Shown here piece by piece: positions 2,691 to 64,000 of a DNA stretch of 64,000 bases. The first letter of the stretch is position 1. Every line of letters begins with the position of its first letter. Position numbers and translations under genes: made by a program. The notes under the pieces were generated by a model. It had not been told where the DNA came from and made no database searches. It was given only the letters and a program-made list of their open reading frames with translations. The stretch lies in NCBI GenBank assembly GCA_958009085.1, contig OY253686.1:62001-126000 (forward strand), given 5' to 3'. This DNA comes from Protoeuglena noctilucae. Taxonomy: Eukaryota.

Positions 2691-2996
2691 AGAGAGAGAG
2701 AGAGATTGGAGGGCTGATGAGGGTATGAAGAGGGGTGACAGAGCTGCTGAGGGTGTGCGGCATGTGTCTTGTGACGTATGGCGGGGCTGCGGACGCGTGA
2801 CAGAGCGACGCAGCAGTGGTGGGGTCTTATATCATCTGAGGAATTAAAATACTCAGAATATACGCACTTGTGCTTATAATTGAATGGAAAGCGATGGCTG
2901 ATGACCCGCTTGCTGTCATGGTTGGTCACACAGCTCCCCTCATTTAGAGCCACTCCTCTGTGCCCACATTCAAACTCAAACACCCTGTTAATCAAA

Positions 2997-4770
2997 TCAA
3001 AACCTCACGTGCCGCAGCGTGGTGTGCCTCCTGGGTCCACCGCCCCCCGCAGCCACCGCCCCAGCAGGCGCATGCGGGGGGAGCGAAGCTCAGCTCTCAG
3101 GGACGACAGCGCCGACTTGTATCTGTCGGTAGAGGGAGAGAGAAAGCACATATGTTGCATATTGGCCATTGATATCACAGTCACTATGTTGTGGTAACTA
3201 GCAGCAGAGGTGAGCGGGGCAGTGGTGGGGATTGCGACGTGCGAGCAAGACACATTCGTGAATGAATGAATGTGACAATACAATGACAATACAATGAATG
3301 TGAACAGCTTTCCACTCTCCATCTCCCATCTCTCACCTCCCTGCTTTCTTCCCCATGACGGTCGCGAATGCGTGGAGGGCGAGGTAGGTGGCGTGGGACG
3401 CGGGCAGCCCCGGCCGGCACGCCACCCCCGTGCGTGCGGTGACAGCGCGGGCGCGGGGATTTGATCAGACGGGGGAGATAGGAAGCGGCCTGAGTTTGGA
3501 AAGGGAGGGAGAGATGGGTGAGAGTGAGATGGGTGAGAGTGATTGAGAGTGAGAGTGACAGTGAGAGTGGGTGAGAGTGGGTGTGAGAGTGGGAGCGGAT
3601 GAGGCGGGGGAGGTCGGAAGCGGCCTGAGCGGGGATGAGAGGGATGAGATGGGTGAGAGGGGGCGCAGTGAGGGGGGTGAGAAGGGTGGGGAGAGATGGG
3701 TGAGAGTGGGTGGGATGGGTGAGGTGAGGCGGCGAGATGGGGTGGGTAGAAGCGGTTAGCATGAGTGCNNNNNNNNNNNNNNNNNNNNNNNNNNNNNNNN
3801 NNNNNNNNNNNNNNNNNNNNNNNNNNNNNNNNNNNNNNNNNNNNNNNNNNNNNNNNNNNNNNNNNNNNNNNNNNNNNNNNNNNNNNNNNNNNNNNNNNNN
3901 NNNNNNNNNNNNNNNNNNNNNNNNNNNNNNNNNNNNNNNNNNNNNNNNNNNNNNNNNNNNNNNNNNNNAACAGGACCGGTACTCGCAGATAGGCTAGACT
4001 ACATCATGTGCTACGTCTGTCTCCTTTTGTGCGATACATCTCGCCTTCTCATGTAGCAGTAACACTCAGCAACGCTTAGTACCAGAAACACACCAGTAAC
4101 GCACTGGCAGTAACAACTCACCGGCGGTGTCGTGAGTTCGTGGCACGCCGCGTTGCCGGGCAAGGCCCCCCCCCCTCGGTAGCACATGCGGCCGGCCACC
4201 AGGACGTTTTCTGACGCGCCGGATGCCAGAAGGCGGGAGGCCACGGAGCCGACCAGGTTACTGCGAAGAGAGACGGGGTGGGTGATTGATTCCAGTGGGA
4301 GGACTGTTTTGACACTTTTAGATTTATGGACTTGAACTTGATGGATAGATTTATAGACTTGATGGGTAGGGCAGGCAGGGAGTCAGTGGGTGCACATGTG
4401 ACGGTGCTGTGAGAGTCGTGGAATGAATGGCGCTGTGGCTCACTCACCACACCGTGCCAGTCGCACGCAGGGTCGACCCCGCAGGGAGAAGGACAACACG
4501 CGCCGCGACGGCTGCGGACCCGTCGAGCACCCAGCACACGTCGCAGGGGCAGGGCGTGTTGGTAGAGGGAGGGACGCGAGAGGTGGGCGGTGCCTGGCAC
4601 GCGTCGGCCAGCGCCCGGGCCGCGGGGCCGGCGAGGGGCGAGTCGCGGAGGACGACGTTGACGATGGCCTGGCGAAGCGACAGGACGGGGCTCGGGAACA
4701 GGTGCTGCAGGACGCGGCAGGTGGGGGCGGGAAGGGCGAGAGCGGGTGCGGGCGCTGTCTCGCGCGACAT
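2997..4770 (-). CDS. TERT: Telomerase reverse transcriptase: N-terminal (TEN) exons at 4770-4122 and C-terminal extension exons at ~3490-2997; the central TRBD/RT region is missing in the gap
   Basis: Splicing exon 1 (ATG 4770, donor after 4448) to exon 2 gives CRVLQHLFPSPVLSLRQAI...TVCNLVGSVASRLLASGASENVLVAG, which matches the TEN motif (human [26 protein letters not shown]). The 3' exons give HATYLALHAFATVMGKKAGRYKSALSSLRAEL...LRGAVDP-RHTTLRHVRF*, which matches the plant TERT C-terminus (WLGLxAxxxVLKKKxSRY...AxD). Two 1-nt indels in C/G runs (~3457, ~3034) are needed. Confidence 0.82.
3769..3968. other. Assembly gap (200 N)
   Basis: Run of N. Confidence 1.
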
Positions 4771-5378: not shown

Positions 5379-7842
5379 TGTTCTCATTCGGGGCATCGTC
5401 CGCAGCGCAGGGATCCCCCGGTGAGAGGCTCACCGGGGCTGGTGCTTCGTGCGCGGGTGGCGGCATGCCTGCCGCTCGCGCCCCCGCACGTCCCGGTCCC
5501 TGATTCCTAGCTGACAGTAGTCTGTGTATAGACATTCGTCTTCGCAGCCTCGCGATCGCCCTCGCCGGCGCGTCGGGCCGTCGGACGGCAACGCTCGCTG
5601 CTGTGCTCTTCGATTTGCACCCAGCGCGGCCCCTTGCGCCTCCCCAATCCCTGCTTTCGATTTGTTTACCCTCACAGGTCTTTTTGGGGCCGCGGCGTCC
5701 TCTTCCGCGCCGTCCGCCTTCTCCTTCGGCGCTGCCGCGTCCACCGCCTCCCCGTCCTTCTCCTTTACCCCGCAAACCACCACGGCGCTGCAGCTGACGG
5801 GGCCGCAGGCGTCACCGGGAACCTTCCAGCTTGGCGCGCAGGCGAGCTCCGCGCCGCGCCCGGCTCCCAGCGCCGCCCCGACCCTCGCCGTGCCCACTCC
5901 AGATCGCCCCACTGCGCTGTGCAGGCCGCGGCATCGGCCGCGCCGTCGCTGCCGCCGCTGACGACGGCGGACGGCCGTCCCGCGAGCGGCGAGACGCGTT
6001 GGGAGGAGCTCAGCGAGGCGTCGAAGCGGTGGCTGCTGGGGGTGGAGGAGCGACTGATGGCCGAGCGCACCGAGAGCGCTGCTCTGGAGGCCTCCCTCGC
6101 AGCGGCGCGCGGGGCCACCCGTCGTGGCGTTGCGGACGACGCCCGCGCACTGCGGCAGCAGACGGAGGGCGCGCGCCTGGCCCTGTCGTCCGACGCGGCC
6201 GCGCTGGGTGCCCTGGAGGCGCGTGTGCGTGCCCTCCTGCACGGCGCAGAGTCTGCCGTTCGCCTGGCGGGCCGCGTGCGCGCGTGGCACGACCTGCGGG
6301 AGAACCGGGAACACGCGGCGCCGCTGCCGCCCCAGGCGATTGAGGATTTGCGCTTGCGGCACCCGCTTCCCAGCCCGGGGCTGGCGGGGGCGGTGCGGTG
6401 GTTCGAGGAGAGCGTGCGGGAGTGCCGGGGGTATCTGGAGTCGGTGGAGGGGGCGCTGAGGGCCAGCGGGGGGGCGGGGGGGCTGGGGGTGTCACCGGAC
6501 CAGGTGGGGGGTTGCGTGGGGGTGAAGCACAGCATGAAGAGTGCGCGTGGTAGAGGTGTCTGGCTCAACTGTCATGTTCACCATGCCTGCTTCACGTGTC
6601 ATATGTCTTCGGTTCAGCTGTGATGTGTCGTATTCACCTCATCTCGTCCACCGCGTCTCATCCCTCTCCCCTTCTCCCCCTCCCAGGTTGCCCGCGATCT
6701 TCCCCGCCTGGTGGAGGCGGTGCACGATCAGCTGGTGGCGGCGGCCGCGAGGGTGGAAAAGGTGGACGCGAGGGTGGGGGTGCTGCGTGAGGCGCACAAA
6801 GCGAGGATGCGGCAGAGGGGGAGGGACGAGGACCCATTCGCCAGCTACGAGGTGAGGGAATGAGTGGATGTATGGATGCGGTGGGGCTGTTTGGTGGATC
6901 TAGCGTTAATTGAGAGCGATGGGGTGTGTAGGGTTGCGATGCGCGGGTGGAGTGCAGGGCATAGGGAGGTGGAGTTGGTAGCACAGCTGCCCACACTGTG
7001 CATCGCAGGTAAGCAAGAGAGCACCGAACAACACCGTTCCTTCCATCCCATCCCCGCAGGGTTACGAGCACAGAGCCCCGCAGGTCCACCCCTCCCGCAT
7101 CCTCGCCACCACCCCCGCACGCGCCACCACCACCGCCCAGGCACCCGCTGCCGGCACACCCCTGGCCCTGCCTGCTCCCACGACATCTTCCGGAGGTCTC
7201 TTTGGCGCATCTGCCTCTGCTGCTGCCCCCGCATCTGCCGCGGCTGGGGCTGGGGGGTGGTCCTTTGGGGCCAGCTCATCGGGGGGTGGTCTCTTCGGTG
7301 CGTCAAGCAGTGCGGCTGCGACCGGTGGGGGCTTGTTTGGGGCTACAAGCGGTGCAGCGGCGAGCGGTGGTGGTTTGTTCGGTGCGACAAGCGGTGGTGC
7401 GACCACAACCGGGGGTCTGTTTGGGGCAGGGGCGTCGTCAGCTGCGGCTAGCGGTGGCTTTTCGTTCGGAGCAGCGACGCCGGGTGCGGGGAGCGGGGGA
7501 GCTGCGACAAGTGGGGGTCTGTTTGGGGGAGCGGGCGCGTCCACTCCCACCAGCAGCGCGGGTCTGTTTGGGGCAACGAGCAGTGCGGCTGCAGGTGGCG
7601 GTGGTGGTTTGTTCGGCGCTTCAACGGGCGCGGCTGCGGGTGGTGGTGGGCTGTTTGGTGCAACAAGCGGTGGGGCAGCTGCGAGTGGCGGTGGTGGGCT
7701 GTTCGGTGCAGGGGCGTCGTCGGCAGCGGCCAGCGGGGGCTTCTCATTCGGTGGGAGCACGCCTGCGGCCAGCAGCGGTAGTGGTGGCTTTTCCTTCGGG
7801 GCGCCGGCGCAGAGCTCCGGGGGCTTTGCGTTTGGGCGGTAG
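5379..7842 (+). CDS. NUP58: FG nucleoporin Nup58/Nup49-like
   Basis: Starts MFSFGA; has FSFG repeats and a helical domain beginning ETRWEELSEASKRWLLGVEE followed by a coiled coil and a DPF motif. The last exon (7060-7842) carries many GGLFG/FSFG repeats. About 5 exons. Confidence 0.75.
7190..7840 (+). repeat. Coding GGLFG(A) FG-repeat array
   Basis: Recurrent units of ~33-39 nt encoding (S/G)GGLFGA(T/G)S. Confidence 0.85.
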
Positions 7843-8386
7843 TGACGCGCGGTGCGTGGGAATGCACTTGTGGGTGTTGAGATGGGCATGTATTACACAT
7901 GGGGGGAGGGGTTACGTGCGGCGTTGCAGTAGCAGTTGTCACGGTGGCTTTGCACAGCCGTGGCTTCGCAAGCATTGCCGCTCTTGTTGTGACTTGCTTC
8001 AACGAGGTTGCGATGGCGAGATGGACAGAGAGCACGTGGGAGCAGCAGAATTGACCCCGCGATGTGCCGGGCGCCAGGAAACACAACGCGCAAGCTGTGC
8101 CAATGGCGCAGGCGATGCGGCGAGACGGAAAGGGCGGAACACGAAAAGAAGCCCCGAGTGCGATTGAATTGTCACACAACAACGGGGCTTGCGTGGTGGG
8201 ATGTTGTACGGATGACAGGGAACGGAGCGGCGATGTGTGTGCGTGGGTTGGGGAGTGGCGGCGTGCCCGGGCGTGACGATGCACTACCAAAATGATTGGT
8301 AGTAGTGGTGTCAATCGAGATAGTCGAGCCCGTCATCGATATCCGCATTTGTACCCTCATATTGCCCCCACTAGGTGTGTTGTGTC

Positions 8387-10634
8387 TCACGCCGGGTGTG
8401 CCTCAATGACCTTGAGGGTGGCGGAGGTATCGTGGATGTGGGCCAGTTTGAATCCAGCGCCGGCCAGGAGACTGGGGGGGTGGGGGAGGTGTGCAGGGAG
8501 TTGTTAGAGCGAGAAATGTAACCGTGGCTGTGAGAGGAGGTGCAGGGGTACCTAGCATGTGACGCTGTGACGATTGCGCAGGGTAACCCATCCCCGTTCG
8601 CCCCACTGGCAAAGCACAGAGCACCCCACTTGCAGTTCACCCCAACCCTCCCCCCCCCCCCCCCCCCCCCCTCACCTCTCGAACTCCTTGGCGTTCCGTT
8701 CCTTCCCGTTCAGCAGCAGCCCCATGTGAATGTCGATGAGCTTGGCGAACTGGGGAGTCGAGTCCTCCTTAACCACCTCCTCGATCAGAAAGAGCGCGCC
8801 GTCGTCACTCATGGCGCGGCGGATGTTGTGCAGGATCTGAAAGGGTTCGGGTGAGTTTAGATGAGTTAGCTGTGTGATAGTGGGGGCGACGAGTCAAAAC
8901 CTGTGCTGGTGGACAGTACAGTTAACTGGCCGTCTCCCCACTCACCGCAGTGCAATACCTCGTCACAGCACCCCCCCACACACTCATCCACACACCCCCC
9001 AAGTCACCCCCCACTCACCGTGGTGCTCGTCGTCCGGCCAGTCGTGGATGATGCGGCTCATGATGTAGGCGGGGTAGCCATGCGGCACATCTGTGAAGAA
9101 GTCGCCCTTTGCAGTGGACACGCGGCCGGCCACGTCAGGGGCGGGGCGGTACGCGTCAATCACCACGTCGCGGTCGAACTGGGGACAATAAGAGATGTCA
9201 ACTGTATGTTAGTATGTGATCAACAGCCGATGAGCAAGACATGATCAACAGTCGGTGAGCACGATGGTTTGACCACAAACACATCATGCCATCCCCGCCC
9301 GCACCAACCAGCCCTCTGCCCCTCCCCTCCCCCTCCCTCACCTGCACCACCCCCACGCCAACCCACCATGCTCTCCGCCCCTCTCTGCACCCTCACCTGC
9401 ACTCCCTTGACGTCCCCCGGCAGACTCCTCAGCAGCGCCTCCAGGATGACGCCCCCCCCGCACCCCACATCGATGATCGTGTGGCGGCCCTTGAGGGAGG
9501 CGAGGAAGGGGGCGCAGGAGGCGATGGGGGGGGCGGACAGGTAACCCATGGACTGCGCAGATGGGGTGTGTGTGTTTAGGGGTTTATGAGGGGTGTAGCG
9601 GAGAGAGGTAAGAGAGGTGAGGGGGTAACAGAGCGAGGGCGACAGCGAGAGGCAGCACATCCCATCACTTGCAAAACCTGCCCTGCACCACGCATGCCCT
9701 GCTGCACCCACACCCTCTCTCACCTTGAATGCCCGTGCCGTGTCGACGTCGCAGGTCCGCTCCACGGCCTCGAACAAGTTGGTGTCATTCGGGAAACCCT
9801 TGGCCATCTGGATCTCCCCCGTCTTGCAATAGTCCACGATGCCCTTGGCCCAGACGTCCTGGAAGGCGGGGCTGGTCTCCCACAGTACGCCGTCGCGGAT
9901 CGATGCGGGGTGCGACGCGCGCAGGACCTCCCCGAGCGGAGTGAGGCTGAACACGCGACGGTCGCCCTCCTCGCGCATCTCCAGAGCGCCCAGGCCCGCA
10001 GCGGCGCGCATAACGCGGCAGAGAGCGTCAGTGTCCGCACCCACCGCGCGCGCCACCTCCAGATCCGTCGCGCGGCCACCAGCGTCATGGATCGCGTCGG
10101 CGACCTTTAGCTCCGCGACCGCGCGAAGGACGTTCGCCCTCCTGAGTAGGCAGAGAGACGCAGCAACGTCGGATTAATGCACTTGCGGAGTCCGGCTAAA
10201 CACCATGCAGGAAGTCAAGAGCTTTTCTCCGCGTTACGTCCTCATGGGCCGCAGCCCACTGCGCCCGGCATGAGAAACGATCGCCGTAGGGCGCGCATGG
10301 AGCGCGTGCATTGGATCAGAACGCGCACATCGCACCAGTGCATCGTGGCGATCGCCATCGCCTCGCGCGCGGCCTCGAGGTGGGCCGTGGAAACTTCCGC
10401 CTGCGTATCCGCGGCCTGCGCACGCAGCGCGCTCATCATCCGCGGCGTGCGGGCCATCGGCGAGCGAGGAAGCGATCGCGACCGACGGAAAGCGACATCC
10501 TTGGCGGGAGCCGCGACCCCGCGGCCGAGCGCGCATTGCAGGGTCATGGTCATCGTCACAAAGGCAAACCGAAGCCGTTGCCAGCTTAGACGGGCATTCC
10601 TGGCGAAGCCTCACTCGTTCAACTCAGCCGCCAT
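8387..10634 (-). CDS. SAM-dependent O-methyltransferase (class II, COMT-like, with dimerisation domain)
   Basis: Motifs LKVADAI, LCRVMRAAAGLG, IIDVGCGGG, GDFF..VP, YIMSRIIHDWPDDE, GGKERN.KE; last exon LLAGAGFK...KVIEAHPA* (stop 8387). Start exon inferred. Confidence 0.88.
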
Positions 10635-45077: not shown

Positions 45078-49329
<4,252 letters not shown>

Positions 49330-55139: not shown

Positions 55140-56200
55140 CTGAACGCGTGCGCTAGTGGAGTGGCACGCCCAAGGGACTGGGGGGACCGGATCTCGGGAC
55201 CTGGGTCCCCCGCTCTGTCCCACGAGGGGGGCGCCGCAGCCTTTGCAACACTCCGAACATGACGTGAAACCCTCGGCTACTGCTCCCGACTCTACTAGGC
55301 TCCCGCCCGCCGGCGCCCGCCCGAGGTTTCCTTGCGGGCACCCCGGAACGAGCACCGACGGGCAATAACCACTGTCCCTAGAGACCGAACCCGGACTTTG
55401 GGCCCTGGAGGACCGGCGACCTTGAACTCCTGCACGTCCAAGAAGCACCGAAAGAACATGTGCAGACTCACCACGTCCCGCGCACGCGCGAGCAGGCTAC
55501 CCACACCATCACAGGAGTGCCATCTAGCAGACCCGGTGGGGCGCACCTTGCCGCCGCCCCGCCAGCAGAAGGTGTACAGCTGCGCCAGGACAGAGCAAAG
55601 CATGCATATGGCGCCGTGGAATACGCTGGCGAGCCCCCACCTGTTGCGGCCTCACCTGGGTCTTACCTGCAGCTGCTGGCACTGCCCCTGGGACGCCCTC
55701 CCACGCGGACCTGCAACGCGGACCTTCCCGGCCGCTCACGCGGCAGCCGGGAAGCCGCGCCACGAGAACCTGCGGCCATTGGCGTGGGCGAGGACGAGCC
55801 TGTCGCCCCGCTTCCCCAGCAGAGCAGCAAGGCGCCCTGCCCCAGTGACAGCCAGAGTGTCTTGGACCTCGGCTGCCACGATGGCGCCAAGCTGGGCATA
55901 GAGGCCTGCGGGCGTCGACGGGGAGCGCCAGTTCTCCCGAAGCTCTTGGCGGCGCCTCCAGATGAGCTTGAAAGCCGCGCCCACGATGACCGCCCACGAG
56001 TACTGCGTGAAACGGCTGGGGGAAGGGGGGACCAGGTGGAACACCGCCCGCGCCGAGAGGGCCGGGGCCCGCGCGGCCGCCTTGACCGTCTCCCACACCT
56101 CCTGGGCCCTGTCACAGGCCCAGAAGGCGTGGGCGACCGTGTCGTCGTGGGAGCACTGCTCGCCATCCCTGCGGAGGAGGGGGCACGTGGTGAGGTCGAG
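55140..56200 (-). mobile_element. 3' fragment of an L1/Tx1-like non-LTR retrotransposon (zf-RVT cysteine-rich region); 3' boundary uncertain
   Basis: The frame 56200-55736 reads CPL...CSHDDTVAHAFWACDRAQEVW...FKLIWRRR, matching the C..E/DT..H.F..C..A..VW and IW..R signature of L1 ORF2 C-termini. Confidence 0.78.
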
Positions 56201-56494
56201 CTAGCTATAAACGACGCCTGGAACGGCGCGGAACAGCGGCGGCGCTCCGACGGTTGAATTCTTTACTAAGGATTACTGATGACGGTAATGACACGCGCAC
56301 GGCGGCGCCAGCGTTGACTTTCAGCGGCGCCAGCGTTGACCGTACGCGCCTCATAAAAAATTATTCCAACAGCCGCGCGGCCGTAGGGGCCGAAGGCCAG
56401 CTGGACAAATGTCCCCATCGGGCTTCGCCCTACGCCTTGAACGACGCCTGGAAGCCCTCAGCTTACGCCAAAAAAAAGAGAAAAGAGGCGTCAG

Positions 56495-56881
56495 TCAGTC
56501 CAGACGCACAATGTCATCTACACCTTCGACCCAGTTGGGACCATCATCGTCATCGTCGATGATATACCTCGGCATCACGATGTGTCTGCAAAGCGAAGCC
56601 TGCCGCCATGCTTGACACTCATGGCAATTATTCAGGTGTAATTCAAAATACTTATGATTGACGTAATGCTCTTCTTCCCAGGCGTACCCCTTATGAAACA
56701 GATACTGAGGGAATGCTTCAATAGCAGCCTGGATCGCAGCTTTAGGGTCACCATGGCATAATATGGCGAAATCGAGCTCGTCGCTCACGATGATATCACG
56801 ATCGGGGACACCGGCCGAAGGCTCCACGAACGTCTTCTCGCGAGGACACCAGACAGTCGGGTCGCGTTGTCTCTTTGGCAT
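56495..56881 (-). CDS. Hypothetical viral protein, 128 aa (H-x3-C-x2-C...C-x-H possible metal site, acidic tail)
   Basis: Intronless ORF whose ATG is preceded by the duplicated 32-nt motif and TATATAT. Confidence 0.65.
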   Translation of the reverse strand: MPKRQRDPTVWCPREKTFVEPSAGVPDRDIIVSDELDFAILCHGDPKAAIQAAIEAFPQYLFHKGYAWEEEHYVNHKYFELHLNNCHECQAWRQASLCRHIVMPRYIIDDDDDGPNWVEGVDDIVRLD

Positions 56882-56888
56882 ATATATA

Positions 56889-56920
56889 ATGGAGAAAAGC
56901 TTTACGGCGTTTTTCTCCCA
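56889..56920 (-). promoter_or_regulatory. 32-nt palindromic upstream motif, copy 1
   Basis: 30/32 identical to 57353-57384; both copies lie 7 nt upstream of a minus-strand ATG. Confidence 0.65.
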
Positions 56921-57081
56921 CGCCTGTACCGTTCCTTCGAACGCTGGATCGTGGCTTCACGGTACTCCTGGTTTTCCGAATATCGGGCCTTTGCTTTCGC
57001 GAGAATACGTTCTCGATTGGCTTGGTAATAGCGTTTATGCTGAGGTAGATAAGAAGACTTCTTGGGTTCTTCTTCGCTCAT
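56902..57081 (-). CDS. Small basic helical viral protein, 59 aa (absent from the ORF track)
   Basis: MSEEEPKKSSYLPQHKRYYQANRERILAKAKARYSENQEYREATIQRSKERYRRGRKTP*; AT-rich leader. Confidence 0.68.
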   Translation of the reverse strand: MSEEEPKKSSYLPQHKRYYQANRERILAKAKARYSENQEYREATIQRSKERYRRGRKTP

Positions 57082-57102
57082 ATAAAAAAAGGGATAAAAA
57101 TT

Positions 57103-57345
57103 TTATGACGGTCTGAATCCACGCGAACCGTTATGCCAGGGTAGCATTCTACCTGGCCTTCGGATGTCGTTCACCATGTCGTCGAAGGACGCATAGGTTA
57201 CATCCGACGTTTTAGCGGGCGTGCCTCCGAACCAATGCTCAAAAGTAGCTTTACTTTTGTCCCACTTCGCCTGACTCCAGTTGATAAAGATACCGAGCTC
57301 TTTATCATTGGCGTCGTAAAGCATCGTGTACCGCGTCTTACCCAT
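57103..57345 (-). CDS. Hypothetical viral protein, 80 aa
   Basis: Intronless ORF preceded by copy 2 of the 32-nt motif. Confidence 0.6.
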   Translation of the reverse strand: MGKTRYTMLYDANDKELGIFINWSQAKWDKSKATFEHWFGGTPAKTSDVTYASFDDMVNDIRRPGRMLPWHNGSRGFRPS

Positions 57346-57352
57346 GATAAGG

Positions 57353-57384
57353 ATGGAGAAAAGCTTTACAGCGTTTTTCTTCCA
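57353..57384 (-). promoter_or_regulatory. 32-nt palindromic upstream motif, copy 2
   Basis: ATGGAGAAAAGCTTTACAGCGTTTTTCTTCCA; see copy 1. Confidence 0.65.
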
Positions 57385-57422
57385 CCCTGAATACTTCGTT
57401 AAAAAAATATCGCGTAATAAAT

Positions 57423-57671
57423 ATGCAATACAAAATTAAGATGTATCTTAAAGACGGGTCTACTGTACTGATGGATAAGATATTTTACTTAGATATACCC
57501 AAAGACCTTGGAATTACATTGGAAGATGACCTTAGGTATCAAGAAGCAATGAAGCCAGTCTCTGAATTCTTCGAAAAGCTCGGCGAAGTATTCGGTAAAA
57601 AGGGCGAAAACATTAATTATGAGTTGATTAGCGTAAATACTCCTCCTGGTCTTCGCCGCTTGCTTTTTTAA
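57423..57671 (+). CDS. Hypothetical viral protein, 82 aa
   Basis: Intronless AT-rich ORF with leader AAAAAAATATC...AATAAATATG. Confidence 0.62.
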   Translation: MQYKIKMYLKDGSTVLMDKIFYLDIPKDLGITLEDDLRYQEAMKPVSEFFEKLGEVFGKKGENINYELISVNTPPGLRRLLF

Positions 57672-57745
57672 AGCTCCTTTTGATTGGCGCCGTAGGCGCC
57701 GTAGGGGTAGAGGGGACTGCGTCCCTCTTTTTTCTAAAAGATTAT

Positions 57746-58162
57746 ATGTCAGCAATGCAGCAACAGCCGATAGCTCCCACGCCTACAGTAGACAGGCACT
57801 CGCATACCCTCCGTATCATCGTCCGATTCCCTGCAAACTCGAGTTCCACAGTAGTGCATCTCGACGTCCCTCACTTGGAATCCGTGAGCGGCAAGCCGTT
57901 TGGACTTATGGTTGAGAGCACCTGCAATATGCCAAGCGACGCCCTGCTAACCACAAATGATTTACAGCTGTACCATAGTTTCGACCCGCTGACGGGGTAT
58001 ATGTCCAACGTTATTTCCGGCGCTACCTCTCAACCCACAGCACCTATCCCCGTATATCCGTTCACAAGCAAGAACATGACGTTCAGTATTACAGATATGA
58101 CAGGCGCGTCGTATTCTGCCACGCACACCGCTTTTGCCGTGATTCTCCGCGTTCTCATCTGA
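57746..58162 (+). CDS. Putative minor capsid (penton-like, single jelly-roll) protein, 138 aa
   Basis: Alternating beta-strand patterns; C-terminal MTFSITDMTGASY...FAVILRV resembles the h-x-h-x-h-x-D-x2-G...h-x-h-x-L ending of polinton/PLV pentons. Confidence 0.5.
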   Translation: MSAMQQQPIAPTPTVDRHSHTLRIIVRFPANSSSTVVHLDVPHLESVSGKPFGLMVESTCNMPSDALLTTNDLQLYHSFDPLTGYMSNVISGATSQPTAPIPVYPFTSKNMTFSITDMTGASYSATHTAFAVILRVLI

Positions 58163-58186
58163 ATTATTTTGTTTGTATGTATATAA

Positions 58187-58612
58187 ATGGTCCTAAAGAA
58201 ACCTGTCTCGGAGCCCCAGCCTGAGGGGGACACCCCCAACCCCGGACAAGAGCAAGAAACCACGGCTCCTGCGGCCCCCGTGGCGATTTCTTAGCGATTG
58301 GAGAACCTAAAAAAGGCCCGTGAAGTTCAAACCCAACGCAAGGAGGAGCGCCTTCAGCATGAGACTGCACTGAAGTCAGTGAAGCAGAAAGAAAAAGACC
58401 TCCAGAACCTGGAACTTGAAGTCAAGCAAAAGGAGCTAGAGCTGAAAGAGAAAGCTTTGCTGGAACGTCTTTACCATATCAAGACGGCATCCTCGAAATA
58501 TGTCCAAGAAGCTCCACCCCAGGAACGCACAATGCGCGAGACCGAGGTGCGCGAGGCGATTCAGGAGTCTCGTCGTACTGGGAACACGAGGAATCTCGTA
58601 GACTACTTCTGA
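58187..58612 (+). pseudogene. Charged coiled-coil viral protein interrupted by an in-frame TAG (58292-58294)
   Basis: ATG 58187 after TATATAA; 35 codons, then TAG, then in frame RLENLKKAREVQTQRKEER...VDYF*. Confidence 0.62.
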
Positions 58613-58682
58613 GGGGACGTAGTCCCCTTAAACCCCTTTCTGCGACCATCCCCCGTGGGGGTTTGAGGGGGCGTCAGCCCCC
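58612..58682. terminator. Double hairpin between convergent viral genes
   Basis: AGGGGAC-GTA-GTCCCCT (58612-58628) and GGGGGC-GTCA-GCCCCC (58667-58682), each overlapping a stop codon. Confidence 0.5.
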
Positions 58683-59240
58683 CAAGCTTTCGTTGAGGTT
58701 TTTTCGGAATCGTTCGCCTTCTGGAGACTGAAGGATTCCCACAAACGCGTCATGAATATCATCCTTGGTTGCGGTGTCCCATAGTTCAAGGAATTTATCC
58801 GGCGTCAGGTAGTGCCCACACATTGTCTCAGCCATGGCCTTTTTGATTTTGGGATTCGCGCATCTCCACAGCGCGAAAATATAATCCATGCTCCTTACAC
58901 TCGGAGGAATCGTCTGAGTCCATGATTGTACGCTGACAAACACCGATGTCCTGCGATGTCGCATCGCGGTGATGAATCGATTGAACTGACTATTCATATG
59001 CGTCGAAACAATCTGTTAAACCCTAGGAAGTCGTCCACGACAATCGCGAAAGTCGGCTTCCCGTGTGGGTACTTGGTCGGAGGTTCGAATTCGAAGTGCT
59101 TGAGAAGCTCAAGCTCATCATCACTGAAGAGTTCGAGGATTTCTTCTTCTTCGGAGTCGTGCTTTACTGACTTATACAGACGGAAATATTTCCTATACAC
59201 GGGGATGTACTTCAAAATGGCGTGATCGTTGTGGAGAAGT
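58674..59240 (-). pseudogene. 5'-truncated A32/FtsK-like DNA packaging ATPase (Walker A missing; 1-nt frameshift at ~59005)
   Basis: Walker B AIVVDD; arginine-finger/sensor region MRHRRTSVFVSVQ; IPPSVR; C-terminal FRKN. Confidence 0.82.
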
Positions 59241-59244
59241 GTTT

Positions 59245-62200
59245 AGTGACCTTTTTCCGATTCGTCGACGGCTCGCGTTTCGCCTCTCGACGCCTCGCGT
59301 TTCGCCTCAATAGTCGACGCGCTGGCCCGCCCAGGGGGGGCTTTCGCTTTCATCATCGGATTAGGCGCGCGGGATCATCATCGCTCATCATCATCAGGTA
59401 GGCCGTCGGCGTAGCGCGAGCGGGAGGGTGGCGAGGGGTGCGGCGGAACGGTCATGTGCATCGCGACTCTCTAGGCAGGAGGCGAGTTCGCAAAACCCCT
59501 GGCAGGCGCCAGGTGAAGGCACAGCCGCTCGGTCTCGTTGGCTCGGGACGAGCCGCGCCCCGGAGCCGAGGGGGGCTTGCGAGGCGCCGCGCGCTTGGCA
59601 GCGTGCGGTAAAATGACGATCTGTAGCATGGATGGGCCGGGAGGCCGGCGGGAGGGGGATGCGGCGACGGGGGCGGCCCGATCAGATGGTGTTGTTAGCT
59701 CGAGCGTTCGGGGCCCGCGCGGTGGCGGGGCGGGGCCGGCGTCGGGTCTTTTGCATGCAGAAGGTTCAGAAGATATCGCAGGAGGGTCTACGGGGGGCGG
59801 AGGAGGCGGAGCGGGCGCGGGTGCGCGGCGCGGGGGCGCGCTGGGGCAGCATGGCGGCGCGAGGAGAAGGGGGGGCGGGAGCGGTCTGCGAGGCCGGGGG
59901 AGCGGGGAGAGTCGGTCTGGAGGCGTTCGAAGCTCGGGAGCGCAAGGGTCGGAGGTTGGAGAGGCGCCGGGAGCGCGTATCGGCGCGCTCCCACCCATCC
60001 CGCTGCCGCCGTTGGGGAATCTGCCCCCGCCGCCGCCGCCGCCGCGGATGGCGCCGGCCGCGGTGCCGGCGCGCGGGCCACGGCGACGGGGAAGGCGGAG
60101 CGCGGCGCGGGACCTCGCGCCCGACGACCTGCGGGTCGTCAGCGTCAACGTGCGGGGGCTGTCGAGCGGGGCCATGGCGGGCAAGCGGGCGACGGTGCGG
60201 CGGCTGGTGCGGAGGCTGCGGGCGGACGTGGTGGTTCTACAGGAGGTCAAGATGCGGGCGGGGCAGGAGGCGGTGGCGTCGGGATTCTTCCCCCAATACT
60301 TCTGCCACTGGTCGCTGGACGAGAACGGCGGCCCGGGGGGCGTGGGGGTGCTGGTACATCGGGAGTCGGTGGCGGGCGCGCCGAAGCGGCGCGGGGCGGA
60401 CGTGGAAGGGCTGGCGGGGCGGGCGTGCGCAGTCGACCTCGCATGGGCCGACCGGCGCTTCACGGTGGTGGGGGTCTACGCGCCGGCGTCCGGGGGGGCG
60501 GCAGCGCACAGGGACTTCACTGCGCGGCTGCGGCATCTGATGCCGCCTCGCCAGGCGCACAGGGAGACGATCGTCGTTGGGGACTTCAACTGCACGTCGG
60601 GTCACCCGCTCGAGCGGGCGTCCCGGCGCTACCACGACGACCTGGCCAAGGTCATCCACTGGACGGAGAACGTGACGGGGCCGCAGGGGCTGGCGGACGT
60701 GCACGTGCAGCTGGGGCTGCGCCGGGACACCTACACGTGGTTCGGGGCGCGAGCGGAGGGGGCAGCGACGCCGGCGGCGCGCATTGACCGCTGCCTGGCG
60801 CGCCCGGCCCTGCTGGTCCGGTACCCGGCGACGCTGGCGGCGCGCTTCGTGCCCGGGCTGGACCACAAGGCGCTCGTCCTGACGCTACGGCGGCGGGCAG
60901 ACAGGGCCGCGGGGCGCAACCCGCTGCGGCAGGTCCGGCCGCTCTGGGCGCCGGGGAGCCATGAGGCCGAGCGATTCCGGCGGGGTGTGTGGAGGGACTT
61001 ACCGGCGGACGGGCCGGGGTGCACGTCGGTGCGAGTGGCCAAGGTCATCCGGCACCGCGCGGAGGCGATCAACCTGGTGGTGCGGCGGCGGCGGGACGGG
61101 GAGCGGAGGCGTCTGGAGAAGCAACTGGGACGGGCAGAGAGGAGGGCGCAGCGGACGAACGCGACGGAGGACTGGGACCGGATGCTGGACCTGCAGCGCC
61201 AGCTGACGGTGCTGGAGCAGCAGGAGGTCCAGTGGCAGAGCGAGCGGGCGAAGCACTTTCTGCGGGTCTTCGGGGCCGTGCCGAGTCGGCGGATCACGGC
61301 CCATTTCAAGTGGCGGCGGCGGGTCGAGGGCGTCACGGACGACCTCGCGCGGGACCTGCAGACCAACATGGCCCAGCTCTACGCCCCTGCCGCGCCCCCT
61401 GCCTCCGCGGACGGCCAACATGAGAGGGCACGCGCTAACTTCCTGCGCAACCCGCGGTCGCCGCTGTCGGAGGAGGCGAGGGCCGCTCTCGAGGCAGACG
61501 TGACACGGGCGGAGGCGGCGGAGGCGATACAGGGTCTACGGGGCGACAGCTGCGGTGGCGCGGACGGCATCTCCCCGGCGCTGCTCAAGGCGTGCCAGGG
61601 CACCGGGACCGAGGCGGGTGTCGAGCGGGTGGTCGCCTACTTCGTCAACAAGCTCCTCCGCGGCGAGGGGCACGACGGCCGCCTCGCGGACGCCGCCATC
61701 ACGCTCATCCACAAGGGCGGCTCGCGGACGGACTGGCGGCGGTACCGCCCCATCTCCCTACTGTCCGTCCTCTACAAGTCTTCGGCCAAGGTGCTGACGG
61801 CGCGGCTGCTGCGGGTGCTGCCGCAGCTCGTGCACGAGGGGACCAGTTGGGTTTCGTCCCCGGGCGTGACATTGGGACGGCCATCTACTCGCTGCATCTG
61901 CTCGACGAGCTCATGCGCATCCGGCGGCAGTCGGCGTGGGCGGTGCTGGTGGACTTCGAACAGGCGTACGACACGGCCTTCCGGGGGTGGGCTGCGGACG
62001 CGATGGCGTGGGGAGGGCTCCCGCCGCGTTTTGTCAAGGCGGCGGTGGCGCTGCAGAGCGACAGCCGGGCGAGCCTGGTCCTCAACGGGGCGGCGGGGGA
62101 GCCGTTCCCGCTCAACCGGGGCGTCAAGCAGGGATGCCCCCTGAGCCCGCTCATCTTCGTGCTGGCGGTGGAGCCCCTCGCAGAGAGGCTGCGGGCGTGG

Positions 62201-64000
62201 GGCCAGGAGCCGGTGCAGCTGCCGGGCGGCCCGCGGTGCGACCGCGTGCTCGGCATCCGGACGACGGGCGGCAGGGCCCAGACGCTGCTGGCCTTCGCCG
62301 ACGACTTCAACGTGCTGCTCCAACGGCTCGTGGGGCGCGACAGGAACCAACTCGACCCGTGGCGGGAGCTGGCCGAGGTGCTGCGGGACTTCCACCGTGT
62401 GTCCGGGCTGAAGGCGAGCCAGACCGAGACGAAGCTCTACCGACTGGGACGCATCAACAAGCGGCAGGAGGCCAAGGCCGCCGCGCAGGGCTGCCCGTGG
62501 GGGGTGGAGCCGGGGGGCGTGCGGCTGCTGGGGGCGCAGACGAGAGAGCAGGCGGCGCTGGTGTGGCCCGGGCGGCTGGGGGAGGCCCTGCGCCGCGCGG
62601 ACGCGGCGTCATCGCTGGGGCTGCCGATCCGGGGTCGGGCGCGCGTCGCCAACGCCTACATCACCTCGCTCGCGGGGTACCACCTGGAGATGTCCCCCGC
62701 CGCCGACCACTCGTGCGTCGCTGACCTGCGGAGGGTCCAGGAGCGCTATGTCCTCAACGCACGATCGGCGGGGCAGGTGTGGTTCCGTGTGGGCCGCATC
62801 ATGCTGACCGCCCCGCCGGAGGAGGGGGGGCTGGGCGCCCTCCCGCTGGACGCGCACACGGCGGCGCGGCGGCTCCGGCACCTGGCACGCGCCCTCATCA
62901 CGAAGCGCGTGGGCGCTCACGGCCAGTTGGGCGGTCTCGCTGGCATCCTCACGGCGTGCCTGGAGGGGCTCGGGGCAGGCCGGCTGGGCCTGCTGCCCTT
63001 CTCACTGCCCGAGACGGACGGTTGCCACGTGGCGCAGTTGATCGAGTCCCGCCGCCTGCGGGGCAAGCTACCGGCGCTCGAGAGCTTCTGCGACGCCATT
63101 AAGGGCCTCGGGTCCCTGCGCGCGACCCTCGGGCCCGTGCACGCGCCGCCACCTCTGGCACCCACGACGGACGAGGTCGCCCAGCAGCGCTGGACCAACC
63201 TGGCGGCGGAGGGCCGGCTGACGCTCAACTTCGACGGGGGCTCGCGGGGCAACGGTTCCGACACGTCCACGGCTGGCGCGGGGGCGGTGCTGGCGGCCGG
63301 GGAAGGCGAGGGGGTGGAGACGCTGGAGCTCGCGGGCCCCGCCGTGCGCGGGGCCTCCAACAACCAGGCCGAGTTCGCCGCGCTTTTGGGAGGGCTACGC
63401 GCGGCAGTCGAGCTCGGCGCCACCAAGCTCCGCGTCCGGGGGGATTCCCTCCTCGTCATCCGCGCCATGGATCCGCGGGACTGCTCGGCGCTGCGGCACC
63501 CGGCGCTGGTGCCGTTGTGGACCGAGGCGCAGAGGCTCGCGGCGGGCCTCGACATCACTTGGGAGCACGTGCCACGGGAGCAGAACGCCCTGGCGGACCG
63601 CCTGTCCAACGTGGCCATGGACGGGCATGGCTGGCGGGGGGCGCGCGTGGGCGGCGGGGGCCTGGCGGGCACGGACGGCTCGCGTTTCGCCTCTTCTACG
63701 GACTTCTTCACCCCCGTCACTGGGACTACAAAGGGGGATCTACTCTGCGCGTCGCTTCTCACCCCGGGGGTCCTCTGTACCGCCGGCGGGGGCGGCCCGG
63801 GCGCGGGGGTGGCAGCCCTGGGGGCGCCGGCGATGGAGGGGGCGGCTGGCCCCCTCCACAACGACATGGGACAGGACCAAGACGATTCGGCCTCATCGCT
63901 CCACAGCTTCGCGACGGGCGTCCATGGGAGGGCTGGTGGGGCGTGGGTGCACGACGGCGCGCCGGGCGACGACAATACGGATGATGGGATCGACGAGGGG
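59245..64000 (+). mobile_element. L1-like non-LTR retrotransposon (APE-RT-RNase H), running off the window end
   Basis: Return to high GC; contains ORF2 (next feature); 5' boundary coincides with the ATPase truncation. Confidence 0.93.
59613..64000 (+). CDS. LINE ORF2: apurinic-like endonuclease, reverse transcriptase, RNase HI; frameshift at 61839-61840
   Basis: APE: SVNVRGL, LQEVK, VYAP, VGDFN, YTW, RIDR, DH. RT: GADGI, RYRPISLL..LYK, DQLGFVPGR, DFEQAYD, GVKQGCPLSP, FADD. RNase H: FDGGSRGN, NNQAEF.ALL.GL, GDSLLV, HVPREQN.LADRL.N. Confidence 0.95.

Follow-up and report, generated by a model that had tools for sequence, protein, structure and literature searches.

A truncated copy of a multi-copy element with an A32-type packaging ATPase remnant in a nuclear chromosome of a marine eukaryote with GC-rich DNA

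Integrated small DNA viruses are now regarded as a large component of protist genomes, one that annotation has covered poorly, and for certain hosts also as an inducible defence against giant viruses. Polinton-like viruses (PLVs) have genomes of about 14–40 kb, which are often bounded by terminal inverted repeats; the locus described below represents one end only. Genome packaging into a preformed icosahedral capsid is established for the A32/B204 family of ATPases, and giant viruses likewise have an A32 ATPase among their core genes. Endogenous PLVs, virophages and giant-virus fragments have been documented widely among protists and algae, with retrotransposons nested in them and copies that differ as micro-variants (PMC10120064). 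PLV classification rests on capsid genes, and the group comprises several deep lineages (bioRxiv 10.64898/2026.06.19.733378). Here, we analysed a stretch of 64,000 nucleotides from Protoeuglena noctilucae (contig OY253686.1, positions 62,001–126,000), referred to as the window. It contains an AT-rich block of about 3 kb (~56250–59250 in window coordinates, which are used throughout) with the remnant of an A32-type ATPase gene. An earlier note, made from the sequence alone, had described this block as an endogenous PLV remnant.

The block is probably what remains of a small virus-like element of double-stranded DNA (dsDNA) that is integrated in several copies, this one being truncated and dead. 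The element would belong to the kind that combines a capsid with an A32 ATPase, and most likely to the PLV or virophage type in the broad sense. The GC content of the block was 0.40–0.54, as compared with 0.64–0.78 on either side (500-nt windows), which confirmed the AT-richness noted earlier. The block was the sole sustained stretch below 0.56 GC within the window. The open reading frames (ORFs) of the block displayed GC values at the third codon position of 0.40–0.60 vs. 0.73–0.86 in the host exons and in the neighboring retrotransposon. Both its base composition and its codon usage mark the block as foreign. An apparent GC dip at ~3600–3900 of the window corresponds to an assembly gap of 200 N.

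Non-overlapping ORFs starting with ATG covered 65% of the block, as compared with 33% ± 11% in first-order shuffles, and a coverage as high as this was reached in 2 of 1000 shuffles. The seven packed, intronless ORFs reported earlier were recovered on both strands, with two defects that had been overlooked: an in-frame TAG in the 141-codon ORF, and a frameshift in the ATPase gene in addition to its truncation. AT-rich TATA leaders had previously been assigned to six of the ORFs. The 25 nt preceding the ATG had an A+T content of at least 72% in five of the six; among the 96 ATGs that the block contains, this applied to 14.6%. A TATA at a distance of at most 12 nt from the ATG was present in four of the six (9 of the 96 ATGs across the block).

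The ATPase remnant is located at 58674–59214 on the minus strand, and its assignment to the A32 type within the FtsK-HerA superfamily is based on motifs, relatives, Pfam matches and the fold of an intact copy. The remnant is divided between two frames. The Walker B motif (IVVDD) lies in a 73-aa piece in frame 2 (58994–59215, minus strand), and the sequence from the sensor motif to the C-terminus (RHRRTSVFVSVQ...FRKN) forms a 107-aa piece in frame 1 (58674–58997, minus strand). The three motifs were found where the earlier note had placed them, and both Walker B and the R-H...S....Q segment following it are preserved in the window copy. The gene begins at a residue that matches position ~121 of the full-length copies, leaving ~120 N-terminal residues absent. 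The Walker A P-loop (GxxGxGKT/S) is missing from the window copy; it reads GIGCGKTT in intact copies of the same family.

With the 107-aa C-terminal piece as query, phmmer detected 43 relatives (E ≤ 1e-3) in a set of 1.84 billion representative proteins. These relatives were mostly 280–315 aa long, and the piece aligned to their residues ~184–287. The consensus of 30 relatives contained Walker A, a Walker B of the hhhhDD form, the segment H-R-H...S....Q, and a tail of W-D-x-A-T ... F-R-K-N-F; residues D171, D172, R196 and Q207 were invariant. Pfam Pox_A32 (PF04665) was matched by 19 of the 30 at E ≤ 0.01 (best 7.8e-9), many of them below the gathering cut-off, and the next family was matched by six. 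The intact same-family copy P0067 (280 aa) scored 23.4 bits with Pox_A32, just above the gathering threshold of 22.8. The profile of the 30 ATPases showed weak matches only to PDB sequences (B204, E 0.03), and a word-indexed protein search with the ATPase profile returned six matches without informative names. The clusters of the relatives likewise bore no informative names, the sole functional label being the JGI annotation 'Zonular occludens toxin (Zot)' on P0025. The ATPase lineage is thus without named relatives in these comparisons.

The AlphaFold2 model of P0067, calculated with an alignment of 36 relatives, had a predicted local distance difference test (pLDDT) value of 92 and a predicted template modeling (TM) score of 0.88. 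When this model was compared with the PDB, ranks 1–9 were occupied by the packaging nucleoside triphosphatase B204 of Sulfolobus turreted icosahedral virus 2 (STIV2), with E values of 7.7e-7 to 7.5e-6. The TM score by target was 0.68 for the best match and up to 0.69. HerA, FtsK, EccC and TcpA came behind B204 at E values of 3.5e-5 to 1e-3 (7.7e-5 to 1e-3 for HerA/FtsK). The earlier note had held a grouping with cellular FtsK/HerA proteins to be evidence against its reading; for the P0067 model, viral packaging ATPases rank ahead of these proteins structurally. The fold of P0067, together with the Pox_A32 matches of the relatives, bears out the A32-type call, and the block carries a genuine A32-type packaging ATPase remnant.

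The comparison of the same model with BFVD gave an unnamed entry at the top (E 8.5e-14, TM by query 0.74), and a literature look-up of its accession found nothing. The viral matches were packaging ATPases, with giant-virus A32-like proteins next and the mavirus ATPase at rank 21 (E 1.2e-6). The named matches were mostly giant-virus packaging ATPases (ranks 2–20, E 9e-9 to 1e-6), as would be expected if the block were a fragment of an endogenous giant-virus (Nucleocytoviricota) insertion and its remaining ORFs were giant-virus orphan genes. The ESM Atlas cluster nearest to the 138-aa ORF of the block also carries a Nucleocytoviricota label (0.95, with recognition below the bar). However, BFVD is dominated by giant-virus proteins, so that the ranking may in part reflect the make-up of the library, and the unnamed top match is far better than the named giant-virus entries, for which TM by query was at most 0.55. 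The ORFs of the block are very short (59–141 aa), and the border of a repeat unit lies at 56199, with different flanks in the other copies. Of 20 relatives, those outside the three clusters nearest to the family of the window's copy are located on contigs of at most 21.8 kb. A further giant-virus core gene (capsid, PolB, D5 primase-helicase or VLTF3) was not matched in the Pfam scan of the window, which covered 142 of the 145 stop-to-stop frames of at least 170 aa at E ≤ 1e-5 (the frame at 57632–58159 and two frames across the N gap were excluded). An origin from a giant-virus insertion is quite unlikely in our estimation.

The multi-copy nature of the element was apparent from Logan contigs of four runs aligned to 55600–59900. 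Two of these runs were from organism A (a eukaryote), one was from a marine metagenome, and one was a marine RNA library. They represent at most three samples and three studies, one possibly being the window's own source; the small-share runs X10–X14 were left out. The contigs of runs X2 and X6 started at 56199, and three X2 contigs were unlike the window before this position (agreement 0.58). Contig starts and a step in depth delimit a moderately GC-rich left terminal segment (56199–56456). Its depth in run X2 was 1079, as compared with 154 for the adjoining unique part (~7×), and other copies diverge after 56456. The ~7-fold depth of these terminal 258 bp fits a terminal repeat, without demonstrating one. 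Direct repeats were found in the segment for a 17-nt unit (56302/56324) and a 14-nt unit (56210/56440), the former being duplicated in tandem at a spacing of 22 nt (56302–56340). Neither an inverted partner nor a second copy of the block was present within the 64-kb window, and the loose-end strings of the other copies were found nowhere else in it. This left border is common to other copies with different flanks.

The other copies also define what is missing at the right side. Their sequence past 59214 encodes exactly those residues of P0057 that come before the first ATPase residues of the window. This protein has an identity of 96% to the C-terminal ATPase piece of the window and 84% to the Walker B piece. 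At the frameshift site its reading frame continues without a break, as it does in P0061, P0066 and P0067. P0070 combines an intact N-terminus with the same frameshifted tail as the window, and P0065 and P0072 stop earlier. Twenty near-identical proteins from ENA assemblies fall in one cluster and correspond to the same ATPase gene in other copies. Both the ATPase and the 138-aa ORF were carried by the contig to which the window belongs (502,807 bp) and by three others, of 310,776, 71,792 and 6,091 bp. The window copy is one truncated copy of a multi-copy element. Two further differences were seen in other copies: a 68-nt stretch at 58615–58684 was swapped for 21 other letters, and 174 nt were deleted within the ATPase gene at 58895–59070.

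The lack of the P-loop, the broken frame and the retrotransposon in the ATPase gene indicate, at the sequence level, that the window copy is dead, and it would no longer be able to make particles. The part that is missing here would encode a jelly-roll capsid, and the ATPase of an intact element would package the genome into this preformed icosahedral shell. The element may have inserted into a host repeat, with 56199 as its true left end. A long interspersed nuclear element (LINE) would later have landed in the ATPase gene, and the rest of the element would then lie beyond the 3' end of the LINE, outside the window.

Several observations weigh against a virus-like element of this kind. Genes for capsid, penton, protease, polymerase and integrase were not found in the window by the Pfam scan (142 frames, E ≤ 1e-5), in line with the earlier statement that no major capsid, polymerase/primase or integrase is visible. 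No family match to a double jelly-roll major capsid was obtained in the block (Pfam, PHROG) or in the 142 frames, the copy being truncated and uninformative on the family, and no virophage-type capsid, penton or cysteine protease stands beside the ATPase. Since there is no capsid, polymerase or integrase gene in the window, the viral class is not assignable. The specific assignment to PLVs in the earlier note rests on capsid genes, none of which are present here; it is the likeliest reading but stays unproven. For six of the seven ORFs, the relatives were near-identical copies or none.

The same two findings, no capsid gene and six orphan ORFs, would suit a capsid-less or non-viral mobile element or satellite in which an A32-like ATPase translocates DNA in another role, and so would a multi-copy element with a defined end. 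Nevertheless, the block is truncated within the ATPase, and therefore the region where a capsid gene is expected is out of view. A32-type ATPases of this length and motif set are not known to occur away from jelly-roll capsid genes. We consider an element without a capsid unlikely.

Further points on the negative side for the virus-like element concern its relatives and the ATPase pieces themselves. Searches of IMG/VR yielded no relative, whether the query was the ATPase piece, the 138-aa ORF, either of two ATPase alignments or an exact 27-mer. The metagenome scan retrieved one locus, L001, the ATPase of which is 24% identical. The ATPase pieces of the window had no match to PF04665 at E ≤ 1. 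At this threshold, the 107-aa piece matched no Pfam family at all, and for the 73-aa Walker B piece the sole Pfam match was a weak and unrelated one to DUF2616 (E 0.19).

The remaining points concern the assembly. At several places within 57.9–58.9 kb, the letters of the window were contradicted by every aligned contig, and the left junction at 56201 was not bridged by any contig among those listed. Both would be anticipated for an assembly chimera or a contaminant foreign to the chromosome. In contrast, the block was present at least partly in 14 entries from five studies (organism A runs and marine metagenomes), one of which is possibly the window's source. The unique parts 56427–56958 and 59312–59900 were matched with 0 differences at single-copy depth, and a contig of the RNA library spanning 59131–59428 crossed the right junction with 0 differences. 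Moreover, a repeat, an element and a LINE nested in this way are nothing unusual in a genome. A chimera or contaminant is very improbable, and the block is integrated in a nuclear chromosome of the GC-rich host. The runs identify this host only as a eukaryote that also occurs in marine metagenomes, and the word 'algal' in the earlier note goes beyond that. The earlier note had taken a lack of sequence across the junctions as a sign of chimeric assembly; the right junction is spanned by a contig, and the left by none of those listed.

The in-frame TAG of the 141-codon ORF (58292–58294) is among the affected places. Position 58292 was A in all contigs of all four runs vs. T in the window, and therefore this stop could be strain variation or an assembly false consensus. 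Bellas et al. name the latter as a frequent source of stops and frameshifts in such elements (PMC10120064). By contrast, no aligned contig showed an indel relative to the window at the ATPase frameshift site, and the frameshift is common to P0070.

We also considered a more far-reaching interpretation, in which the host is an abundant marine protist rich in GC and the block is the relic of small integrating dsDNA viruses that form an undescribed lineage. It is prompted by the 43 ATPase relatives among 1.84 billion representatives, with no named member and none in IMG/VR, and by the orphan state of the other genes. This interpretation is tentative, and we would call it possible rather than expected. 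A 3-kb dead fragment alone cannot show an undescribed lineage. The intact gene copies, which are 93–99% identical and occur in marine metagenomes and in the RNA library, suggest recent or continuing activity. If the lineage were real, the element might act in the manner of a virophage, with giant-virus infection of the host as its trigger. Through the relic, a family of multi-copy elements whose ATPase lineage lacks annotation comes into view; its host is a marine eukaryote abundant enough for assembly from seawater metagenomes. The window copy is non-functional and adds little by itself; its value is that of a pointer to intact copies elsewhere in the genome.

The locus L001 is a contig of 12,656 bp with a GC content of ~0.45, and it looks like a small dsDNA virus genome. 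Its Pox_A32 ATPase (7663–8391, E 3e-11) is all that it has in common with the block. It also encodes a phospholipase A2-like domain (3054–3464), DUF5754 (2691–3044) and a 940-aa ORF without a family. The tblastn search of a phage collection gave no match to the block.

Beyond the ATPase, none of the ORFs of the block had a significant Pfam or PHROG match. The 138-aa ORF (57746–58162, plus strand) is intact and had been called penton-like in the earlier note. Its cluster contained 15 members with identities of 93–99% and none more distant, and these members differ at ~9 positions in shuffled combinations. The single-sequence AlphaFold2 model was unusable (pLDDT 34). In the ESM Atlas, the nearest entries were unnamed viral clusters (0.95), with recognition below the bar, and the similarity to the cluster containing Sputnik V18-19 (PF21507) was 0.83, under the 0.9 line for a lead. 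With no Pfam or PHROG family, near-identical relatives only and a model of this quality, the penton-like label found no support in any test; nor was it refuted.

The 128-aa ORF (56495–56881, minus strand) is specific to this copy of the element. The window's own protein was its only database match, and it lies in the stretch of the block with the lowest, single-contig depth. Its CxxC...CxH motif and the SWIM clusters found in the ESM Atlas (0.92, 165 shared features) make it a candidate SWIM-type zinc finger, which we note as a lead only. A basic, helical-looking ORF of 59 aa (56902–57081, minus strand) was called next to it; this had weak PHROG matches only (transcriptional regulator, E 0.0047) and no PDB match. 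Two more ORFs were called, of 80 aa (57103–57345, minus strand) and 82 aa (57423–57671, plus strand), the latter in the most AT-rich part of the block (GC 0.37). The 141-codon ORF (58187–58612, plus strand) begins with a Pro/Glu-rich N-terminus followed by a coiled-coil-like, Lys/Glu-rich part, and its Pfam matches were weak only.

A hairpin-capable, intergenic 33-nt motif was found in two copies on the minus strand, one directly upstream of the 128-aa ORF (56889–56921) and the other upstream of the 80-aa ORF (57353–57385). The copies form a direct repeat with 94% identity (92% over 38 nt in another comparison). Folding gave a z-score of –4.95 for the copy at 57346–57395 and of only –0.94 for that at 56889–56921. 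Relative to shuffles, one of the eight folded intergenic segments was clearly better (the former copy), one was marginal (z –2.29), and the rest were not better. The Rfam and tRNA scans of 55.5–59.8 kb yielded no match, and a scan for bacterial-type promoters and terminators was not above shuffles. The short AT-rich leaders and the intergenic hairpins may serve as the element's own promoters and 3'-end signals. In RNA-library run X9, the contig depth over the block was 0–6.1, with five bins empty and mostly other variants represented; these values may include DNA carry-over.

On the left, the element is flanked by a high-copy host repeat (55600–56200), which lies outside the element and stops at its border. 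The summed contig depth of this repeat in run X2 was 11,640–60,048, as compared with 154 for the unique part of the block (~75–390× single-copy), and other copies of the repeat extend beyond 56201 with a different, consistent sequence. The left flank was also considered as a LINE, which was rejected as there was no Pfam match even at E ≤ 0.1. Its minus-strand translation contains a Cys/His motif resembling the C-terminal zinc finger of non-long-terminal-repeat (non-LTR) reverse transcriptases.

The right flank is the LINE, a non-LTR retrotransposon (59517–64000, plus strand), recognized through Exo_endo_phos (E 8e-17), RVT_1 (6e-13) and the RNase H-like RVT_3 (5e-13). Its 5' side meets the truncated ATPase, and its other end runs beyond the edge of the window. 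The 5' part was near single-copy depth in run X2 (164 vs. 154), and it looks like a rare full-length copy. A short tandem duplication of a 22-nt unit with 95% identity lies between the truncated ATPase and the ORF of the LINE (59265–59308).

In the rest of the window, four separate frames at 45.1–49.0 kb on the minus strand match consecutive parts of the HSP70 profile, the pattern expected of an intron-split gene. The other Pfam domains were Nipped-B, FG-nucleoporin, LigB, ankyrin, JAB/MPN and MGMT. These host genes lie in the window beside the block, and the window is eukaryotic nuclear DNA. On the strand opposite to the HSP70 exons, the frame at 48217–48828 (plus strand) gave a Pfam NAD-GH match (E 4e-21). 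NAD-GH is a known antisense-of-HSP70 artefact, and this frame is probably no gene.

A comparison with the known systems places the block as follows. The ATPase resembles Pox_A32 and B204 of STIV and STIV2 (PDB 4kfs, 4r2h) in the hhhhDD form of Walker B, the R-H...S....Q segment and the fold match to B204, and the tail of the family consensus is that of A32-like packaging ATPases (W-D-x-A-T ... F-R-K-N). It departs from the Pox_A32 model in that the intact copy is marginal and the pieces in the window do not match. Unlike B204 (~200–210 aa), P0067 has a helical insertion of ~35 residues at positions 85–118 of the model. Integrated virophages, such as mavirus, are likewise small integrated dsDNA elements with an FtsK-HerA/A32 ATPase, and the mavirus ATPase is a structural match, although weaker than many giant-virus matches; unlike virophages, the block shows no capsid, penton, protease or integrase. 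With endogenous viral elements derived from giant viruses, the block shares the A32 ATPase and the AT-rich insertion in a GC-rich host, but it differs in its very short genes, in the lack of any other core gene, and in being a small repeated unit whose end is defined.

The likeness to endogenous PLVs (PgVV/Gezel-type, TsV-type) extends to a GC content below that of the host, compact intronless genes, an A32-type ATPase, several micro-variant copies per genome, nested retrotransposons, apparent stops and frameshifts, and presence in aquatic metagenomes (PMC10120064; bioRxiv 10.64898/2026.06.19.733378). Unlike PLVs, the groups of which are defined by capsids, the block has no visible capsid gene, only 3 kb are left, its genes other than the ATPase are orphans, and neither a named protein nor an IMG/VR entry was recovered for its ATPase clade. 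Endogenous elements of such a kind are already well described, and we place the block with this known kind and in no named PLV group; its unnamed ATPase clade leaves room for an undescribed lineage.

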